A stretch of DNA of 8,852 nucleotides from IMG/VR virus record IMGVR_UViG_2711768071_000008, positions 1 through 8,852 of that record; one strand, 5' to 3'. Shown one piece after another: positions 1 through 8,852 of this stretch. Source of the DNA: a virus. Lineage: Duplodnaviria > Heunggongvirae > Uroviricota > Caudoviricetes. Under the pieces are notes generated by a model that saw nothing but the letters and a program-made list of their open reading frames with translations, was not told the origin of the DNA and searched no databases. Both the position numbers and the translations under genes were made by a program. How positions within the stretch are numbered: position 1 is the stretch's first letter; the number at the start of each line of letters is the position of its first letter.

Positions 1-35
1 CGAAACCATTTGATCATATGACAAGATGTGTATCC
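1..35 (+). ncRNA. 3' portion of IS10 antisense RNA-OUT (partial; 5' part is outside the window)
   Basis: In IS10, pOUT transcribes outward across roughly bp 115 to 47 of the element; bp 47-81 map to window 35-1 on the plus strand. The sequence CGAAACCAUUUGAUCAUAUGACAAGAUGUGUAUCC matches my recollection of the RNA-OUT 3' arm. Exact ends uncertain. Confidence 0.35.
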
Positions 36-81
36 ACCTTAACTTAATGATTTTTACCAAAATCATTAGGGGATTCATCAG
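1..81 (-). mobile_element. IS10 (Tn10-type) outside terminal end, partial; the element body lies beyond the window start
   Basis: The reverse complement of 1-81 reads CTGATGAATCCCCTAATGATTTTGGTAAAAATCATTAAGTTAAGGTGGATACACATCTTGTCATATGATCAAATGGTTTCG, which I recognise as the IS10 outside end. It contains a 10-bp AT-rich palindrome (45-54 / 59-68) and a GATC at 12-15. Recalled from memory, not searched. Confidence 0.85.
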
Positions 82-446
82 CGCTTCGCCTCTTCATCCG
101 TCACCCACTGGCTGCCATCCCAGCGCTGGTATTCTCCGTCTGGTGCAATAAATGTGCCATTTTCAGGAAGTTCCCCCAGTTCAGATATCGGGACTGCATT
201 TCCGGTTTCTGTTGAATAAACCGTTTCCCCCCGATGGTCTTCAACCAGACGCCATGAATTGTCAGCAGTATCAAACATTGCTGTAAAACCTTCGGGGATT
301 TCCGGCGGTACAATATCCGTACAGTTTGCGGGTAATCCGGTATGAGGCGGTATATAAGCGTCACCACTGCCGATAAATTCTTTTGTATCTTCAAGAAAAT
401 TAAATACACGAATGGTCCGTGCTTTATCGCTCATTTTAAAAGTCAT
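78..446 (-). CDS. Tail fibre assembly protein (Tfa / lambda Tfa / P2 gpG / P1 U family), C-terminally truncated by the IS10 insertion; 122 aa
   Basis: The translation has the conserved N-terminal chaperone motifs ([53 protein letters not shown]). Its ATG overlaps the fibre stop (TAATG at 444-448). Intact family members as I recall them are about 175-200 aa. The ORF ends at a TGA (78-80) supplied by the IS10 terminus. Confidence 0.8.
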
Positions 447-3412
447 TATGCAAGCCTCACAATATAGTTAAATGCGATGTTTTTGACGGTGTTTTCTGCG
501 TTACCAGTAGCGTTAACAGTGACGGTGTGTCCGTGTGAACCAATAGCAACAGTGTGCATATGAGCACCAATGCCGACAGTGTGCGCATGCGCACCAGCAG
601 ATTTGGTGTAAAGATTTACGGTGCCGGTACTCATATTTACTGTTTTGCCACTGCCGGCACTGACAGAAACATTTTCACCAACACCGTGATTATGACCACC
701 TGTGTTATTTGTTGATTTAGTTCCGTAGTCAAACGACGACGTGGTTTTCGTCCCCAAATCCGTACTGGATGCACTGGCACTGTGGGCGTGTGATTTAATG
801 CCGTCCTGTTCCTGAGACAATACGGCACGACCACTGGCGGGTTTGCCCTTAATCGTCCAGCCACGCATATCAGGGATCACGCCTGACGGATAAGCGGCTG
901 CAAGTTTCGGGTATGCAGATTTGTCAAAAGTCTGCCCCTGCATCAGGGCATAGCCAGACGGAACGGTATCTGATGGCCACGGGATTGGTGCGCCAGGCGG
1001 ATAAAACTGCTCTGATGGCGTATAGAGTGAATAAACTGTACCGTCCGTTAACCCTTCCGGCTTATTAGCAGAATATGCTGGTGACGTATGAATCGTCACG
1101 CTGGCATTACTGGTATAATCCCATTGAATATTTACACCAGTCGCATAATTTCCGATTGCAACGTAAATATCGTAAGTATCACCAGATGTATTAACCCAGG
1201 CAAAATTTGTAAACCCTGTCGATGTGCGCTGCCATAAAGCACCAGTAATCCCCTTCGGATTACCGTTACCTGCACGCAAAACAAGTTCAGATATACCTGC
1301 CTGTTGAGGTGACCCCACGTTAAATCCCGCGCCACCAATCAACGTAATTGAAACAACAGAACTTGCCTGCGGCATGGTTACAGTTGCCAGCTTGAACCAT
1401 CCTGCACCACCACTAAAAGACATTGTTGTGGAGTTGATTGTGCCTATAGACCGTGGGTTAAGTTCAATATCTTTAGAACCATCAAACGAAACACCGTTAA
1501 TAGTGCGCGCCGTCTGCAATCTGGTCGCCGTAGCAGCATTGCCGGAGGTATCCTGATCCCCTTTGGCATTGACGCCGGGAATTGAATCTTTTGACGTATA
1601 GACCTGCGCCCAGTCAGACCAATTGGAAGAATCAGTATCCCGCCGCGAACGGATATGTACGGGCGCATGGGCACCGCTCGTGCCGCTCCAGCCAATGAAT
1701 AACTCGCCTTCGCCAGCAGCGGTGGCACCTTTAAGGTGAAGCACATTCCCATAGGGAGAAGGGTAGCCATTGTTGTATGCCTCATACAGCTGAATCCCGG
1801 ATGTTCCCTGTGCATTCGCCTCCAGGGCCGTTACGCGACCGCGAGATACCAGAGTATTGATATTAATGTCAGCCGAACCATCGAACCTGACGCCATTAAT
1901 GTTTCTGGCTGTTTTTAATTTCGTCGTGGTGTCGGCGTTCCCCGCCAGCGCCCCGGTGATCCCACCGTTGAAAGTCTGGCGTGCACTCCATGTGTTAGCC
2001 GTGCTCAACAGGGGGATCTTTTCACCGCTGGTACCGAGTTCTCTTAAACCAAGGTATTGGATAACAGCAAGAACGCTTGTTTTGGCCAGAATATCGCGAC
2101 CGACTGACGTTAAGTCAGTCTGAGAAACAGTGTCTGTACCGGTAAAGTACGGCAATTTATTTGCACCTGTCGCAAGACCAGCAAGCGCGGTTAAAGTTGC
2201 ATCAAGTGGCTGTTTCCCTGCCAGCGCATTTGTCATTGTTGTCGCAAAGTTCGGGTCATTGCCCAGTGCTGCTGCAAGCTCATTCAGGGTATCAAGAGCT
2301 TCAGGTGATGAGCCGACCAATGCAGAGATAGCAGCCCGTACGTAAGCAGTCGTAGCGATCTGCGTATTGTTTGTGCCCTGTGCAGCCGTAGGCGCAGTAG
2401 GTATTCCCGTTAATGCAGGACTTGCTAAAGGAGCTTTAAGAGCCAGAGCATTGTTGATAGTTGTGCTGAAATTCGGGTCGTTATTGATCGCAGCCGCTAT
2501 TTCTTTCAGCGTATCCAGTGTGCCAGGCGCACCGTTGATAAGTGCAGTTATAGCTGCCTTAACAAAGGCTGTATTTGCGATCTGCGTGCTGTTTGTACCT
2601 TGCGCTGCCGTCGGCGCGGTTGGCGTTCCTGTCAGACTCGGGCTTTCTATTGGCGCTTTGGTATCAGCCAGATCTTTTATAGACTTAACAGCTTTAGGGG
2701 TAGCCGCCATTGTTTCGCTGTCGCTGTTAGTTGCGCTACTGAGCTGAACTAATCCCTTTTGCGTTGTGCTTGCATCCTGCGCCGTATACTTGCTTTTCGC
2801 CAGATCGTAGGCTTTTTTAACTGCCAGCGAACTTGCAGCAACATCACTTCTGGTACTGGTTACAGAGTCTGAAATATCAATGCCGATCGTGCGGTTGATA
2901 CGCTCGGATGTATCAATCATCTCCTGGGTAATAGCAGATACACCAGCAGGGATATTCACCGTACAAACAAGCAGCTCCCCATCACCTAACTGATATGAAT
3001 CGGTATAGATTCTGGCAACAAATTCAGCCGCATGAATATGTGACGCGGTATTCACCTGATAGGTATCTTCTCCAAGGAGGTATCTTCCCTTCAGCACAAT
3101 TGCATATTTCTTGCCTGCACTAAGTGCAAGAGAAATATCCTTACGTTGCTGAATAGTTACCTGGTAGAATTCACCAATATCCACCGACGCCGCGCCTGCG
3201 GTTTTATCACCATCCACTGAGGTGATTAACAGGTTCATCCCACCGCCAGGCTTAGGTAAGAAACCGGCATAAAATCCCGGGTCAACAATCCCCCTGAATT
3301 TTCGGTTTAGCGCGGCTGACAGATATGGTTCGTGGTATTGCACATCAGCCACCAGAGCCAACGACTCGGGTGATGGGTAAGTAACCGATGTGACAACTGT
3401 AACGTCATTCAT
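446..3412 (-). CDS. Tail fibre protein, mosaic (P2 gpH / lambda Stf-like repeats; T4 gp37 / lambda Stf-like His-rich C-terminal tip); 989 aa
   Basis: Long ORF. I place the start at ATG 3410-3412 (MNDVTVV) with an AAGGA ribosome-binding site about 9 nt upstream, because the 29 codons of the track ORF above it overlap the upstream gene. The translation contains [25 protein letters not shown], two copies of the LTG(T/I)[11 protein letters not shown]...[25 protein letters not shown] repeat, ILAK..VIQYLGL, and a C-terminus [50 protein letters not shown]. Confidence 0.9.
2039..2064. other. Serine DNA-invertase crossover site (hix/gix/cix/pix-like), 26-bp imperfect palindrome inside the tail fibre gene
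   Basis: TTCTCTTAAACCAAGGTATTGGATAA matches hixL (TTCTTGAAAACCAAGGTTTTTGATAA) at 22 of 26 positions and gix (TTCCTGTAAACCGAGGTTTTGGATAA) at 21 of 26, both sites as recalled. It has two 12-bp half-sites around a central AA and encodes the conserved VIQYLGLRE junction motif. Confidence 0.75.
2210..2659 (-). repeat. Two tandem copies of a ~225-bp coding repeat (about 75 aa each) in the constant part of the fibre gene
   Basis: Protein residues ~281-355 and ~356-430 are near-identical in pattern ([32 protein letters not shown]... versus [32 protein letters not shown]...). The DNA is visibly similar at a 225-bp offset, for example 2340-2415 versus 2565-2640. Confidence 0.7.
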
Positions 3413-3423
3413 TAAGCATATCC

Positions 3424-3858
3424 TTATGCTGTAGTCGTGTTTATGGCCATAACTGCGGTATATGTTTTGCCCACATACAGCGAGTCTTCCTGGACACAAA
3501 TAATGGCGATTGGCTTGTTCTCGTTATCCAGAACAACCAGAGTGTTGAATGGGTAGTTTTTCCCTTCCTGCAACTGGCTTTGATCAAGGTCCATTCGGAC
3601 AGTAATTATCCCACCTGAGTAGGTTGGCACGAGGTTGATGGTGCAAAATTGACTGGTCAGTTCTGCCAGATCGAAAGCCTTTGGCAGTTCTCCAATCTCA
3701 TAAGTGCCATCTCCTTTCTTAGTAACCAGCGAACTGGTACCGAAAACGGCCTTGCTGATTAAAAATCGAGAGCCTTTGTTAATGGACGATTCAGCGCGCC
3801 GCTGATAGTAATAGTCCAACAACTGACTCTTATAGAGGTTTGTTGAGACGTCAGACAT
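3424..3858 (-). CDS. Hypothetical phage protein, 144 aa, between the baseplate genes and the tail fibre (possible fibre-associated structural or assembly protein)
   Basis: Clean ORF with ATG at 3856-3858 and an AGGGAA ribosome-binding site about 6 nt upstream. Its stop lies 11 nt before the fibre start, in the same orientation as the operon. I recognise no motif. Its position matches what I recall of gene R in the P1 R-S-U operon. Confidence 0.6.
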
Positions 3859-3908
3859 GATTTTCCCTAATCAATGTTGTGAAGCCTCATTGTAAGAGAA
3901 GTAACTTG

Positions 3909-3933
3909 TCACCCCGCCCTGCGGACGGGGTGA
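3909..3933 (-). other. GC-rich stem-loop in the 78-bp intergenic spacer (possible attenuator, weak terminator or RNA-stability element)
   Basis: TCACCCCG (3909-3916) and CGGGGTGA (3926-3933) form an 8-bp stem with a 9-nt loop, starting 3 nt after the stop of the upstream gene. On the transcript it is followed by a moderately U-rich stretch (CAAGUUACUUCUCUUACA), not a clean U-run. Confidence 0.3.
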
Positions 3934-3936
3934 TTG

Positions 3937-4773
3937 TCAGGCGTCGCTATCCAGCAACAAATCATCTGCGCGTGTGCGATCAAACGTAGGTGTCGCTTTC
4001 ACAATAGTACCACCAGGCGTTGCGGTGATCGGGGCGCTAATCGACGTAACTCCAGTAAGCGAAGTTGTATCCGAAGTTTCAAACCAGCAGAATGCTTTTT
4101 CGGTATCAGAAATCTCGTTCAAAGTGATCATGTCGGCCTGTTCATTTACAACAACCGACAAATAGAGCGTAAGCCCATCAAACACTATATGCAGTGGCAG
4201 TAGAGGCTTTACGAACTGATTAAACTTTCTGAGAATTTCTTCTGTAATTGCGGACTGATCTATCGTGCCAGTAATCCCCATTGTCCGGGCCAGGTCGTTT
4301 ATGGGAATACTGATCATCCCTCTGGAAGTCAGAAACATCTCGCCGAATGTGCCGCCGGTAGTCTCCAGTGTGCTTTCTGGTATTAGAACCGTGCCATAGG
4401 GATGACGCTCAAGGTCCACCGGTGCATATATCGGATCCCATAAAACAGAAATACCGTTAAATTCGCGGTAAATTGTCTGGTTTATAGGGCGTTCAGTCCC
4501 CTTAAAGTGAATCTCATCAAGACGCTGTTGTAACAACATCGGAACGGAAGATGAGTTCGACGTTCTGATAGTAAAGAACTGGCCAAGTTCATTTGTCCTG
4601 GTCTCCAGATCCTCCTTGCTCATGGAAAAAATAGACTTCCGGTTGGTAATTCGCTCCAACCATGGGTCAACAAAGGTATCCATCATTGACTGAACCAAAT
4701 CAGCCAATGATTTATAGAGCAATGACTTTTGCTTAGCTGATGTAAGCCGGTTATTAAACCAGGAACGCTGCAT
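3937..4773 (-). CDS. Phage baseplate / tail protein I-like (P2 gpI / T4 gp7 / TssG position); 278 aa
   Basis: ATG at 4771-4773 overlaps the stop of the upstream gene (TGATG) and is preceded by GAGGAGGAG. The call rests on size and position after a J-like gene and before the fibre, not on a recognised motif. Confidence 0.6.
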   Translation of the reverse strand: MQRSWFNNRLTSAKQKSLLYKSLADLVQSMMDTFVDPWLERITNRKSIFSMSKEDLETRTNELGQFFTIRTSNSSSVPMLLQQRLDEIHFKGTERPINQTIYREFNGISVLWDPIYAPVDLERHPYGTVLIPESTLETTGGTFGEMFLTSRGMISIPINDLARTMGITGTIDQSAITEEILRKFNQFVKPLLPLHIVFDGLTLYLSVVVNEQADMITLNEISDTEKAFCWFETSDTTSLTGVTSISAPITATPGGTIVKATPTFDRTRADDLLLDSDA

Positions 4774-6206
4774 CACTCCTCCTCATACGAAATATTAAAG
4801 GTGGAGTTTTCTGTATCCAGATAAACGAAATCGTAAAAGCCGTTGGACTCATTCCACTCGACAAATTCCAGATAAAAGTCGCGGAAATAACCCAGCGTTT
4901 CGATAAATGCCCAAACGTCTTTTTTCTTGATTAGGATGTACTTGCCGACACGGTTCGGATCAAAGAAAGTTGAGTCACGCCCAAATTTTGTTTCCAGTGC
5001 CGACTTCAGCTCATCAGTCACGTTCTCAATGGTCAGGCTTGCCGATATCCGCCCGGTGATGGTGATCTTAAAGGGTAGTTTTCTGACCTCTTTATACGAG
5101 AATTTCTTGTTCAACTCATTCGGCACCTTCTTAAAGGCAGCCAGGATCATTTCTTCAAGCTCTGACTGGCTTTTGTTTGGATGCCATCCTGAAATAAATA
5201 TCTTATTGATATTCCGAACATTATAAGCACCATCTAATTTCTCTTGCTGGCCTTCGCCCCATGCCTTTACCCAGGACAGTCCCGGGATGTTACGCACCAG
5301 AAAATACGTATAGTCCCCGCCCCATACGACCTGATCATCATAGGCAAGGTAATATTGTGCACGATTACGTGTGATCTCCGTTGTTTCGGCATCGGTACCT
5401 GCGGTTATGGGTGTCGTTGTCTTAACTGAAATCAAATTAGCTAAATTAGCCGCAGAATCGACAGGCGTCAGATTTTGGCCAGCAACCAAGGTTATATCTC
5501 CGTTGGTGCACCATACCTTAAGCGTAATTGTCGAGCCTTCTGGCGGTATTTGCCCAATTAGCCCATCGCCGAATCGGACACCCAACTGTTCGGATGGTTT
5601 ATAAAACTCAACGTAGACCTGGCTTTTACTACCGGCTAACCGGAACATAGTGCTGGAAGACCACTGCGTGGTCTTACCATCGGTCGTCACGAATACTTCC
5701 AGCTTATAGCAGACAGCAGTGAGAGCCTTTGATAACACGACTTCCAGAAATTCTTTGGCTGCCGTAACGGTATATGTCACCTCCTGGATTTCCAACTGTG
5801 CCACTTCTACCGTACCGGTGCCGTCAACCAACCTGCATACATCCATAGTCATGTAAGGATACTGGTCGTCAGATATTAAAGGCATGTTTTTGGGGATTAC
5901 CGCTGGGGCATCTTCACTTGTGGCGGTGATCTCAATCATCCCCGATGACGGTGTTGGCTTGGTACCAACGTAACTATTCGTTTCTGCCGCTGCCAGGATA
6001 GAGGAACGCCGCGTCGCGGTCGATATAAAGCCTTCAGCCAGCGCCGCATCGGCATACTGAAAGCACCTGTAGACAATCTGGGTAATAAACAATGTCAGCA
6101 TCGAGACAAATTGAGAGCCGACAAACTTCGACCAGAATGAATCTTTCTCGACAAGCTCTTCAAACTCTGCACGAATACTGTCTTTAGTCGGTGTTGTTTT
6201 ACTCAT
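4773..6206 (-). CDS. Baseplate J-like protein (P2 gpJ / T4 gp6 / Mu gp47 family position); 477 aa
   Basis: Large ORF immediately downstream of the gp25/W-like gene with an ATGA start/stop overlap at 6203-6206. The assignment is by synteny of the W-J-I wedge trio; sequence motifs are not verified. Confidence 0.65.
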   Translation of the reverse strand: MSKTTPTKDSIRAEFEELVEKDSFWSKFVGSQFVSMLTLFITQIVYRCFQYADAALAEGFISTATRRSSILAAAETNSYVGTKPTPSSGMIEITATSEDAPAVIPKNMPLISDDQYPYMTMDVCRLVDGTGTVEVAQLEIQEVTYTVTAAKEFLEVVLSKALTAVCYKLEVFVTTDGKTTQWSSSTMFRLAGSKSQVYVEFYKPSEQLGVRFGDGLIGQIPPEGSTITLKVWCTNGDITLVAGQNLTPVDSAANLANLISVKTTTPITAGTDAETTEITRNRAQYYLAYDDQVVWGGDYTYFLVRNIPGLSWVKAWGEGQQEKLDGAYNVRNINKIFISGWHPNKSQSELEEMILAAFKKVPNELNKKFSYKEVRKLPFKITITGRISASLTIENVTDELKSALETKFGRDSTFFDPNRVGKYILIKKKDVWAFIETLGYFRDFYLEFVEWNESNGFYDFVYLDTENSTFNISYEEE

Positions 6207-6558
6207 AGCACCACGTCCTGTGTGATAGTTATATCCCTGATACGAATGGATATTTTCAACTTATCAAAAGCATCTCCCTCGGCTACTGACAAGCCAGAAA
6301 TCGGTATGTCAGGTAAATCTACCGTCAGTTTTTGCAACAGCATTGCCTCAACCGCAATTTGAACATGCGACAAGTTGGTCGGTTCGTGTTTAAACTGCGG
6401 TAAAACATTGCCCCATGACGGATCTCCGTATACCTCACCCTGATAAGTGTTTAGCCACTCATATAAACGAGCGCCCCAGGCCTCCTCCTGGGACTCATAC
6501 GTTTTTACGCCGGATAACTCCAGCGTCAGCAAAGGATCAATTTCGTTATTGTTGGCCA

Positions 6559-6559
<1 letters not shown>
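6203..6559 (-). CDS. Baseplate wedge protein, gp25 / GPW-like; 118 aa
   Basis: Small ORF. I prefer ATG 6557-6559 over the track's TTG at 6562; it overlaps the stop of the upstream gene (TGATG). Size and position directly before the J-like gene are typical of gp25/W/TssE-family proteins. Confidence 0.6.

Positions 6560-8852
<2,293 letters not shown>

Follow-up and report, generated by a model that had tools for sequence, protein, structure and literature searches.

In the Din family of inversion systems, which includes those of P1, Mu and e14 and the Hin system of Salmonella, each of two inverted 26-bp sites is occupied by a dimer of the invertase. The sites are then joined in cis by an enhancer to which Fis is bound; both strands are cleaved at a 2-bp core, the subunits rotate, the ends are religated and the DNA between the sites comes out inverted. 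In an intact element of the kind considered here, Cin or a Pin-type substitute would pair cixR with its inverted partner, assisted by the Fis-bound enhancer, and a segment of 4-5 kb would flip. The flip would join the constant 5′ half of the fibre gene S to either of the variable 3′ halves, each accompanied by its chaperone, and so switch the host range. The order of elements common to P1, JL22 and pC21-4 is cin, cixL, Sv′, U′, (sacF,) tfa/U, Sv, cixR, Sc. The cin-Sv′-U′-U-S region of P1-like phage-plasmids has already been described as highly variable (PMC9603915). Here we describe one such region in which the crossover site has very likely outlived the switch that it served.

The DNA analysed, called the window below, is 8,852 bp long and makes up the entire draft contig CYGA01000059.1 of the E. 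coli assembly GCA_001284285.1. It holds the P1-like tail operon sit-pmgA-bplA-16-R-S-tfa, all of it on the minus strand and with gene calls that match P1, and window positions 1457-8746 are 97.6% identical to P1. The gene order from sit to S, together with the high identity, places the operon in Punavirus, the P1-like phage-plasmids. Its features are as follows.

1-81, no strand assigned: contig end, which we take to be the outside end of IS10 (known IS10 sequence; many IS copies matched in the search).
82-446, minus strand: 5′ part of tfa, the tail-fibre assembly gene, about 121 of 191 codons (translation; comparison to STEC316 and the sibling contig introduced below, whose homologues have 191 aa).
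446-2051, minus strand: variable C-terminal region of S (Sv), by now apparently fixed in its present orientation (P1 and JL22 matches; lengths of the inverted repeats in P1 and JL22; Pfam PF07484).
2039-2064, no strand assigned: cixR, Din-family crossover site, with 12-bp half-sites at 2039-2050 (variable side) and 2053-2064 (constant side) and the core AA at 2051-2052 (published cixR, P1 alignment and matrix score).
2052-3412, minus strand: constant N-terminal region of S (Sc), spanning codons 1 to about 454 and including Phage_fiber_2 repeats (gene call of 988 aa; P1 annotation; Pfam PF03406; end of SJ46 homology).
3424-3858, minus strand: gene R, 144 aa, first gene of the R-S-tfa late operon (P1 annotation; Pfam PF26881).
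6559-8746, minus strand: sit (tape-measure/transglycosylase), of which IS100 has left the 3′ 728 of 1130 codons (sit of the sibling contig has 1130 aa; homology ends at 8746).
8747-8852, plus strand: left end of IS100 (IS21 family), with the istA start codon at 8832, at the contig end.

The P1 late promoter LPs is conserved upstream of R, at 3889-3907, as seen in a promoter alignment. Within Sv, the stretch 1457-2050 is that 0.6-kb part of the C segment of P1 that forms an inverted repeat, the match to P1 starting at 1457. The remainder (446-1456) is a receptor-binding tip of the JL22 type with a Collar domain, a type common in E. coli P1-like plasmids. Records of the JL22 type match the window down to 295 or 412. 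Below about 411, tfa is of a chromosomal Mu-like prophage type and is 98.7% identical to the gene of STEC316. The preliminary description of this DNA had listed 78-446 as the chaperone gene, but this gene is not intact: IS10 cuts tfa at codon 122 of 191 and provides the stop codon. The open reading frame ends at a TGA (78-80) that belongs to IS10, which also supplies the last base of the final Arg codon (83-81), and the truncated gene covers only positions 1-59 of the 131 in the Pfam Caudo_TAP profile.

The 26-bp sequence at 2039-2064, TTCTCTTAAACCAAGGTATTGGATAA, occurs once in the window. In a table of Din-family target sites cixR is listed as TTCTCTTAAACC AA GGTATTGGATAA (PMC3241671 Table 3), and the window sequence is identical to it at all 26 positions. 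Agreement with other members of the family is 22/26 for cixL, 21/26 for hixL, gix and bixL, 20/26 for pixL and bixR, and 19/26 for pixR. An earlier estimate of 21-22 of 26 positions for the family resemblance was therefore right but understates the exact match to cixR. The imperfect palindrome noted at the same time is also real, 16 of the 26 positions agreeing with the reverse complement of the site itself. The annotated cixR of P1 (NC_005856) aligns to the window without mismatch, both flanks included, and from the P1 annotation and this alignment the P1 crossover at 36480/36481 corresponds to 2051/2052, inside S. Homology to SJ46 stops at the site as well. The proposal that a Hin/Gin/Cin-type site marks the junction between the constant and variable parts of the fibre (Sc/Sv) thus stands, and so does the peptide assigned to it: read on the minus strand, in the frame of S, the site codes for VIQYLGLRE. 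In the 988-aa S, whose start is the ATG at 3412, this peptide occupies residues 450-458; in the longer frame of 1017 codons used earlier, which starts at a TTG at 3499, it occupies residues 479-487.

The site has the layout expected of the family, namely two imperfectly symmetric half-sites of 12 bp about a 2-bp core, in keeping with the family consensus. Scored with a half-site weight matrix derived from 15 sites of the family, it reaches 30.7 bits, inside the range of functional sites, with the runner-up in the window at 9.6. Two hundred dinucleotide-preserving shuffles of the window yielded no match to the 26-bp site at three mismatches or fewer. A loose core pattern, AAACCNNGGTTT with 2 mismatches allowed, was also tried; it gave 7 matches against 4.2 expected and was dropped as uninformative. 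By its sequence, the 26-bp element is a true cixR of a P1-family phage-plasmid, a textbook element that was already known.

In relatives, the site bounds a segment that does invert. When the junction predicted to follow inversion (cin, cixL and then Sv of the window type) was used for comparison, five complete E. coli records matched it end to end. One of the five, pPEC209_3, has the same length as pC21-4 (93,854 bp), the same annotated proteins and an identical left flank, and the 5,440 bp between its sites are the reverse complement of those in pC21-4 (99.98%, one indel). The two are inversion isomers, and hence a segment carrying this very Sv flips in nature.

What lies beyond the IS10 could be read from a second contig of the same assembly. 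The first 82 bp of CYGA01000049.1 are the IS10 inside end; GGCGAAGCG comes next, and after it the remaining codons of tfa. In the window, read on the minus strand, GGCGAAGCG comes immediately before the IS10 outside end that closes the contig (window 82-90 reads CGCTTCGCC on the plus strand), and the sibling contig carries GGCGAAGCG once. The occurrence of the 9-bp GGCGAAGCG at both ends of the IS10 is that of a target duplication, which points to a simple insertion of IS10 into tfa, and the shared duplication makes CYGA01000049.1 the neighbour of the window. From the two different ends and the duplication, we infer that one plain IS10 lies between CYGA01000059.1 and CYGA01000049.1. A target duplication can thus serve to link a draft contig that ends in an IS with the contig next to it.

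Beyond the IS10 come, in this order, the 3′ part of tfa, a fibre of 538 aa (phage_tail_N), a DUF4376 protein of 190 aa, a fragment of 87 aa, a fragment of 74 aa, and then lydC, lydA, lydB, hdf and darA. The second fibre gene and the DUF4376 gene are on the same strand as S, and the fibre is complete with its own N-terminal domain. The two fragments are what is left of invertase genes. The 87-aa fragment, on the plus strand, matches Resolvase positions 116-144 and HTH_7 and represents the C-terminus of a pin/gin-type invertase. The 74-aa fragment, on the minus strand, matches Resolvase positions 2-80 of 145 and is an N-terminal remnant of Cin. Cin of P1, in the same Pfam comparison, shows both the Resolvase and the HTH_7 domains in full. 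The fragments do not overlap, are in opposite orientations and derive from different source genes. Of cin about 234 nt remain, with a frameshift after codon 61. The enhancer sequence annotated in P1 is kept at 72 of 72 positions within this remnant, where it would provide a Fis-dependent enhancer in cis.

The exact S protein was found in one other assembly, GCA_001283845.1, on a contig of 56 kb (CYBW01000029.1), here called the sibling contig. It has no IS in tfa or sit and differs from window 82-8746 by 1 substitution; bases 83-9727 of CYGA01000049.1 are 100% identical to it (9,645 bp). The arrangement on the sibling contig is uninterrupted: an intact tfa of 191 aa, the second fibre, the DUF4376 gene, the 87-aa and 74-aa reading frames, and lydC to darA. 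The decayed architecture as a whole was seen in four draft assemblies and one Logan assembly and was absent from all 5,426 complete E. coli genomes searched. Among complete E. coli genomes and plasmids in the collections searched, none had the IS junctions of the window, nor did any have the whole of this architecture. The last 83 aa of the intact chaperone, used to look in the protein collection for the tfa fragment on the far side of the IS10, returned only unrelated Mu-like phage remnants from other samples.

The preliminary description had proposed an invertible cassette and had placed its other components beyond the IS10: the partner site, the invertase gene, and an alternative fibre with its chaperone in inverted orientation. 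In this genome the search covered 12.9 kb beyond the IS10 and, from the site in the opposite direction, 6.7 kb; in total 21.7 kb were scanned (the 8.85-kb window and the 12.9 kb of CYGA01000049.1) of a plasmid that is probably 90-100 kb in size. The half-site matrix detected no second cix-like site in the window, in the 12.9 kb of CYGA01000049.1 or along 23 kb of the sibling contig. The runners-up in these sequences score 7-10 bits, the level of the shuffles (mean top score 7.5, maximum 12.5), whereas P1, JL22 and SJ46 each yield, with the same matrix, two sites of 27-32 bits. The 12.9 kb past the IS10 contain no intact serine invertase (Resolvase plus HTH_7), just the two fragments of 74 and 87 aa. 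They also contain no inverted Sv′/U′ pair of fibre and chaperone genes, those that follow tfa being on the strand of S. The components that had been placed beyond the IS10 are thus absent from this stretch, and neither a second inverted site nor an intact invertase gene occurs within the first 5 kb or so. It was also considered whether the uninterrupted short-read contig across the 0.6-kb repeat proves that there is no second copy of the repeat; this argument was dropped, as the copies differ by 3% in pC21-4 and pPEC209_3 and an assembler could cross them.

The idea of an invertible cassette is therefore sound for the relatives and fails for this genome, where partner, enzyme and cargo are gone. 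We are highly confident that cixR is an orphan in a decayed prophage, the rest of the inversion switch having been destroyed. With one site and no enzyme, the segment would be unable to invert, S would be locked to its present Sv, and the 26 bp would just code for VIQYLGLRE. Inversion thus appears to be absent from this strain, as judged from the anatomy of the region. The damage goes further than the switch. As IS10 splits tfa and IS100 splits sit, the prophage is very probably unable to build tails or fibres, that is, defective in this strain.

How the switch may have been lost is suggested by SJ46. In SJ46 a 74-aa remnant of cin lies beside a full-length pin of 193 aa in the opposite orientation, and there are two sites and an inverted fibre/chaperone pair. 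The present lineage matches SJ46 in two stretches: one runs from darA as far as the 3′ 289 nt of pin (97.9% identity), and the other begins at the crossover site, takes in sit and continues into the tail genes upstream (94.1% identity; L011 1239-11374). Between the 3′ 289 nt of pin and the crossover site it has no similarity to SJ46. The block of tfa, second fibre and DUF4376 gene matches chromosomal prophages instead (UMNF18, STEC316), and that similarity stops at the junction with the pin fragment.

These comparisons suggest a history in three steps. The ancestor would have been SJ46-like, with cin already truncated and an oppositely oriented pin in its place. A fibre block from a chromosomal prophage would then have replaced the 5′ 293 nt of pin, the left site and the inverted Sv′/tfa′ half. 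Later, and in this strain only, IS10 would have entered tfa and IS100 sit. This order would be the simplest history that we infer from the sequences compared. An origin of the right-hand junction by homologous recombination between cin and a pin/gin-like gene was considered and rejected: the fragments are oppositely oriented, and SJ46 already has that arrangement with a full-length pin.

The loss of the flip-flop may have been compensated, the fixed tip being joined by a second, complete fibre captured from a chromosomal prophage; alternatively, the block may have been captured by invertase-mediated recombination at the crossover site. We regard either version as improbable. If compensation did take place, virions would have carried two receptor-binding proteins at once before the IS hits. 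The captured second fibre, it may be added, has a phage_tail_N N-terminus and a DUF4376 partner.

Another view is that the site still recombines, with a distant partner or a quasi-site and an invertase acting in trans, giving rare large inversions or the exchange of fibre modules between replicons. Invertases of the Din family can stand in for one another, and an intact one elsewhere in the genome (for example, Pin of e14) could bind the site. That this lineage ceases to resemble SJ46 exactly at the crossover site fits a past exchange of modules, but the break is equally well explained if the sites acted as short islands of homology. Moreover, an invertasome needs two sites and an enhancer in cis on one supercoiled molecule, and the 21.7 kb of this genome hold no candidate partner above the shuffle level. 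Recombination in trans is for these reasons very unlikely.

Also very unlikely is the view that the site is one end of an intact cassette whose partner site, inverted fibre and chaperone, and cin/gin/pin gene lie just past the IS10. Such an arrangement is seen in P1, JL22, pC21-4 and SJ46, the site is unmutated, and the 72-bp enhancer survives whole in the cin remnant. Against this, the DNA beyond the IS10 in the same assembly (12.9 kb) and in the sibling has no second site or inverted pair and just the two non-overlapping invertase fragments, and the 9-bp duplication and the uninterrupted sibling contig back CYGA01000049.1 as the true neighbour. Finally, although short AT-rich near-palindromes are common, a chance palindrome with no historical tie to an inversion system can be dismissed given the exact identity to cixR, the P1 gene order at 97.6% identity and the empty result of the 200 shuffles.

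We thus return to an orphan cixR in a decayed prophage as the preferred reading. A perfectly conserved crossover site does not prove that a switch is present, and the useful result here is the negative one. Its value is mainly in correct annotation, and the locus adds one more case of a reshuffled cin-Sv′-U′-U-S region in P1-like phage-plasmids.

Among known systems, the G segment of Mu (gin, gix) shares the logic of the locus, with a site that agrees at 21 of 26 positions and codes for VIQNLGLQE at the Sc/Sv junction; in addition, the 87-aa fragment and the DNA downstream of it are 80% identical to the 3′ region of gin. Mu differs in belonging to another phage family, and the present locus has only a C-terminal invertase fragment and no gix sites. 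The resemblance to the C segment of P1 (cin, cixL, cixR, S/U, S′/U′) is as follows: cixR is identical and in the same position in S, the adjoining 0.6-kb repeat, the operon from sit to R and the late promoter are shared, and the 5′ end of cin is kept nearby with its enhancer. Unlike P1, this lineage has no cixL and no Sv′/U′, its cin is a remnant, its fibre tip and chaperone are not those of P1, and it would show no inversion. The Salmonella phage-plasmid SJ46 (Punavirus SJ46) has the same backbone and the same succession of a 74-aa cin remnant and an opposed pin-type gene. It differs in keeping the 193-aa pin, two sites (29-32 bits) and the inverted fibre/chaperone pair, all three of which this lineage has lost, and the variable segments of the two have no similarity from the crossover point onward. 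E. coli plasmids of the JL22/pC21-4/pPEC209_3 type, in contrast to the present locus, have an intact cin, cixL, Sv′, U′ and sacF inside the segment, and a tfa that departs from that of the window below about 411. They share with it the same cixR and an Sv tip that is about 96-97% identical, and their C segments are found in both orientations.

The C segment, the DNA inverted between cixL and cixR, occurs as natural inversion isomers in two relatives, the plasmids pPEC209_3 (7472-12911 of the sequence examined) and pC21-4 (7472-12910). These are E. coli P1-like plasmids, one Korean and one Chinese, and both are 93,854 bp long. The terminal inverted repeats of their C segments extend over 594 bp, with no more than 97% identity between the two copies. 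In the Salmonella phage-plasmid SJ46 (2769-3796 of its sequence examined), a full-length pin gene adjoins a 74-aa cin remnant in the opposed orientation. The crossover sites of SJ46 are a pair of its own (TTCGCCTAAACCAAGGTATTGGATAA and TTCTCCTAAACCAAGGTTTTTGCGAA). In the protein collection, 94 contigs carry the truncated 74-aa Cin protein type.

The tail-fibre assembly gene, tfa, has been hit by a simple IS10 insertion, which is seen at window 1-90 and at 1-91 of contig 49 (CYGA01000049.1) of the same assembly. The outside end of IS10 is on the window and the inside end on contig 49, and the target duplication is 9 bp long (GGCGAAGCG). This insertion, with its 9-bp duplication, allows the window to be linked to contig 49, both being draft contigs. 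Farther along the same P1-like replicon, downstream of ddrB, lie IS1 fragments and a porin gene of 370 aa (10852-11526 of contig 49; 12079-12412 of a second sequence examined), a layout that is not alike in the sibling assemblies.

A second element interrupts sit, of which the window contig keeps only the 3′ 728 of 1130 codons:

8747-8852, left end of the IS21-family element IS100; the start codon of istA is at 8832

The far side of the IS100 insertion in sit was not found. Upstream of R, the P1 late promoter LPs is conserved, with its elements in the minus strand: a -10 sequence, TACAAT, and a -22 box, AAGTTACTT. A G+C rich hairpin (CACCCCGTCCGCAGGGCGGGGTG) lies immediately upstream of LPs, past gene 16; promoter and hairpin together fall within window positions 3889-3938.

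The tfa gene also contains a mosaic joint (window 295-446), and the match of JL22-type plasmids to the window stops at 295 or 412. Immediately after tfa and in the same strand, the P1-like plasmid carries a second fibre gene and a DUF4376 gene (348-2533 of contig 49, equivalent to 13588-15773 of the sibling contig CYBW01000029.1). This fibre gene is complete, encoding 538 aa with a lambda-Stf-like phage_tail_N N-terminus. The remaining tfa (window 76-460) shares 98.7% identity with a gene of a chromosomal Mu-like prophage of strain STEC316, and the second fibre/DUF4376 block matches chromosomal prophages, that of UMNF18 at 88.6%.
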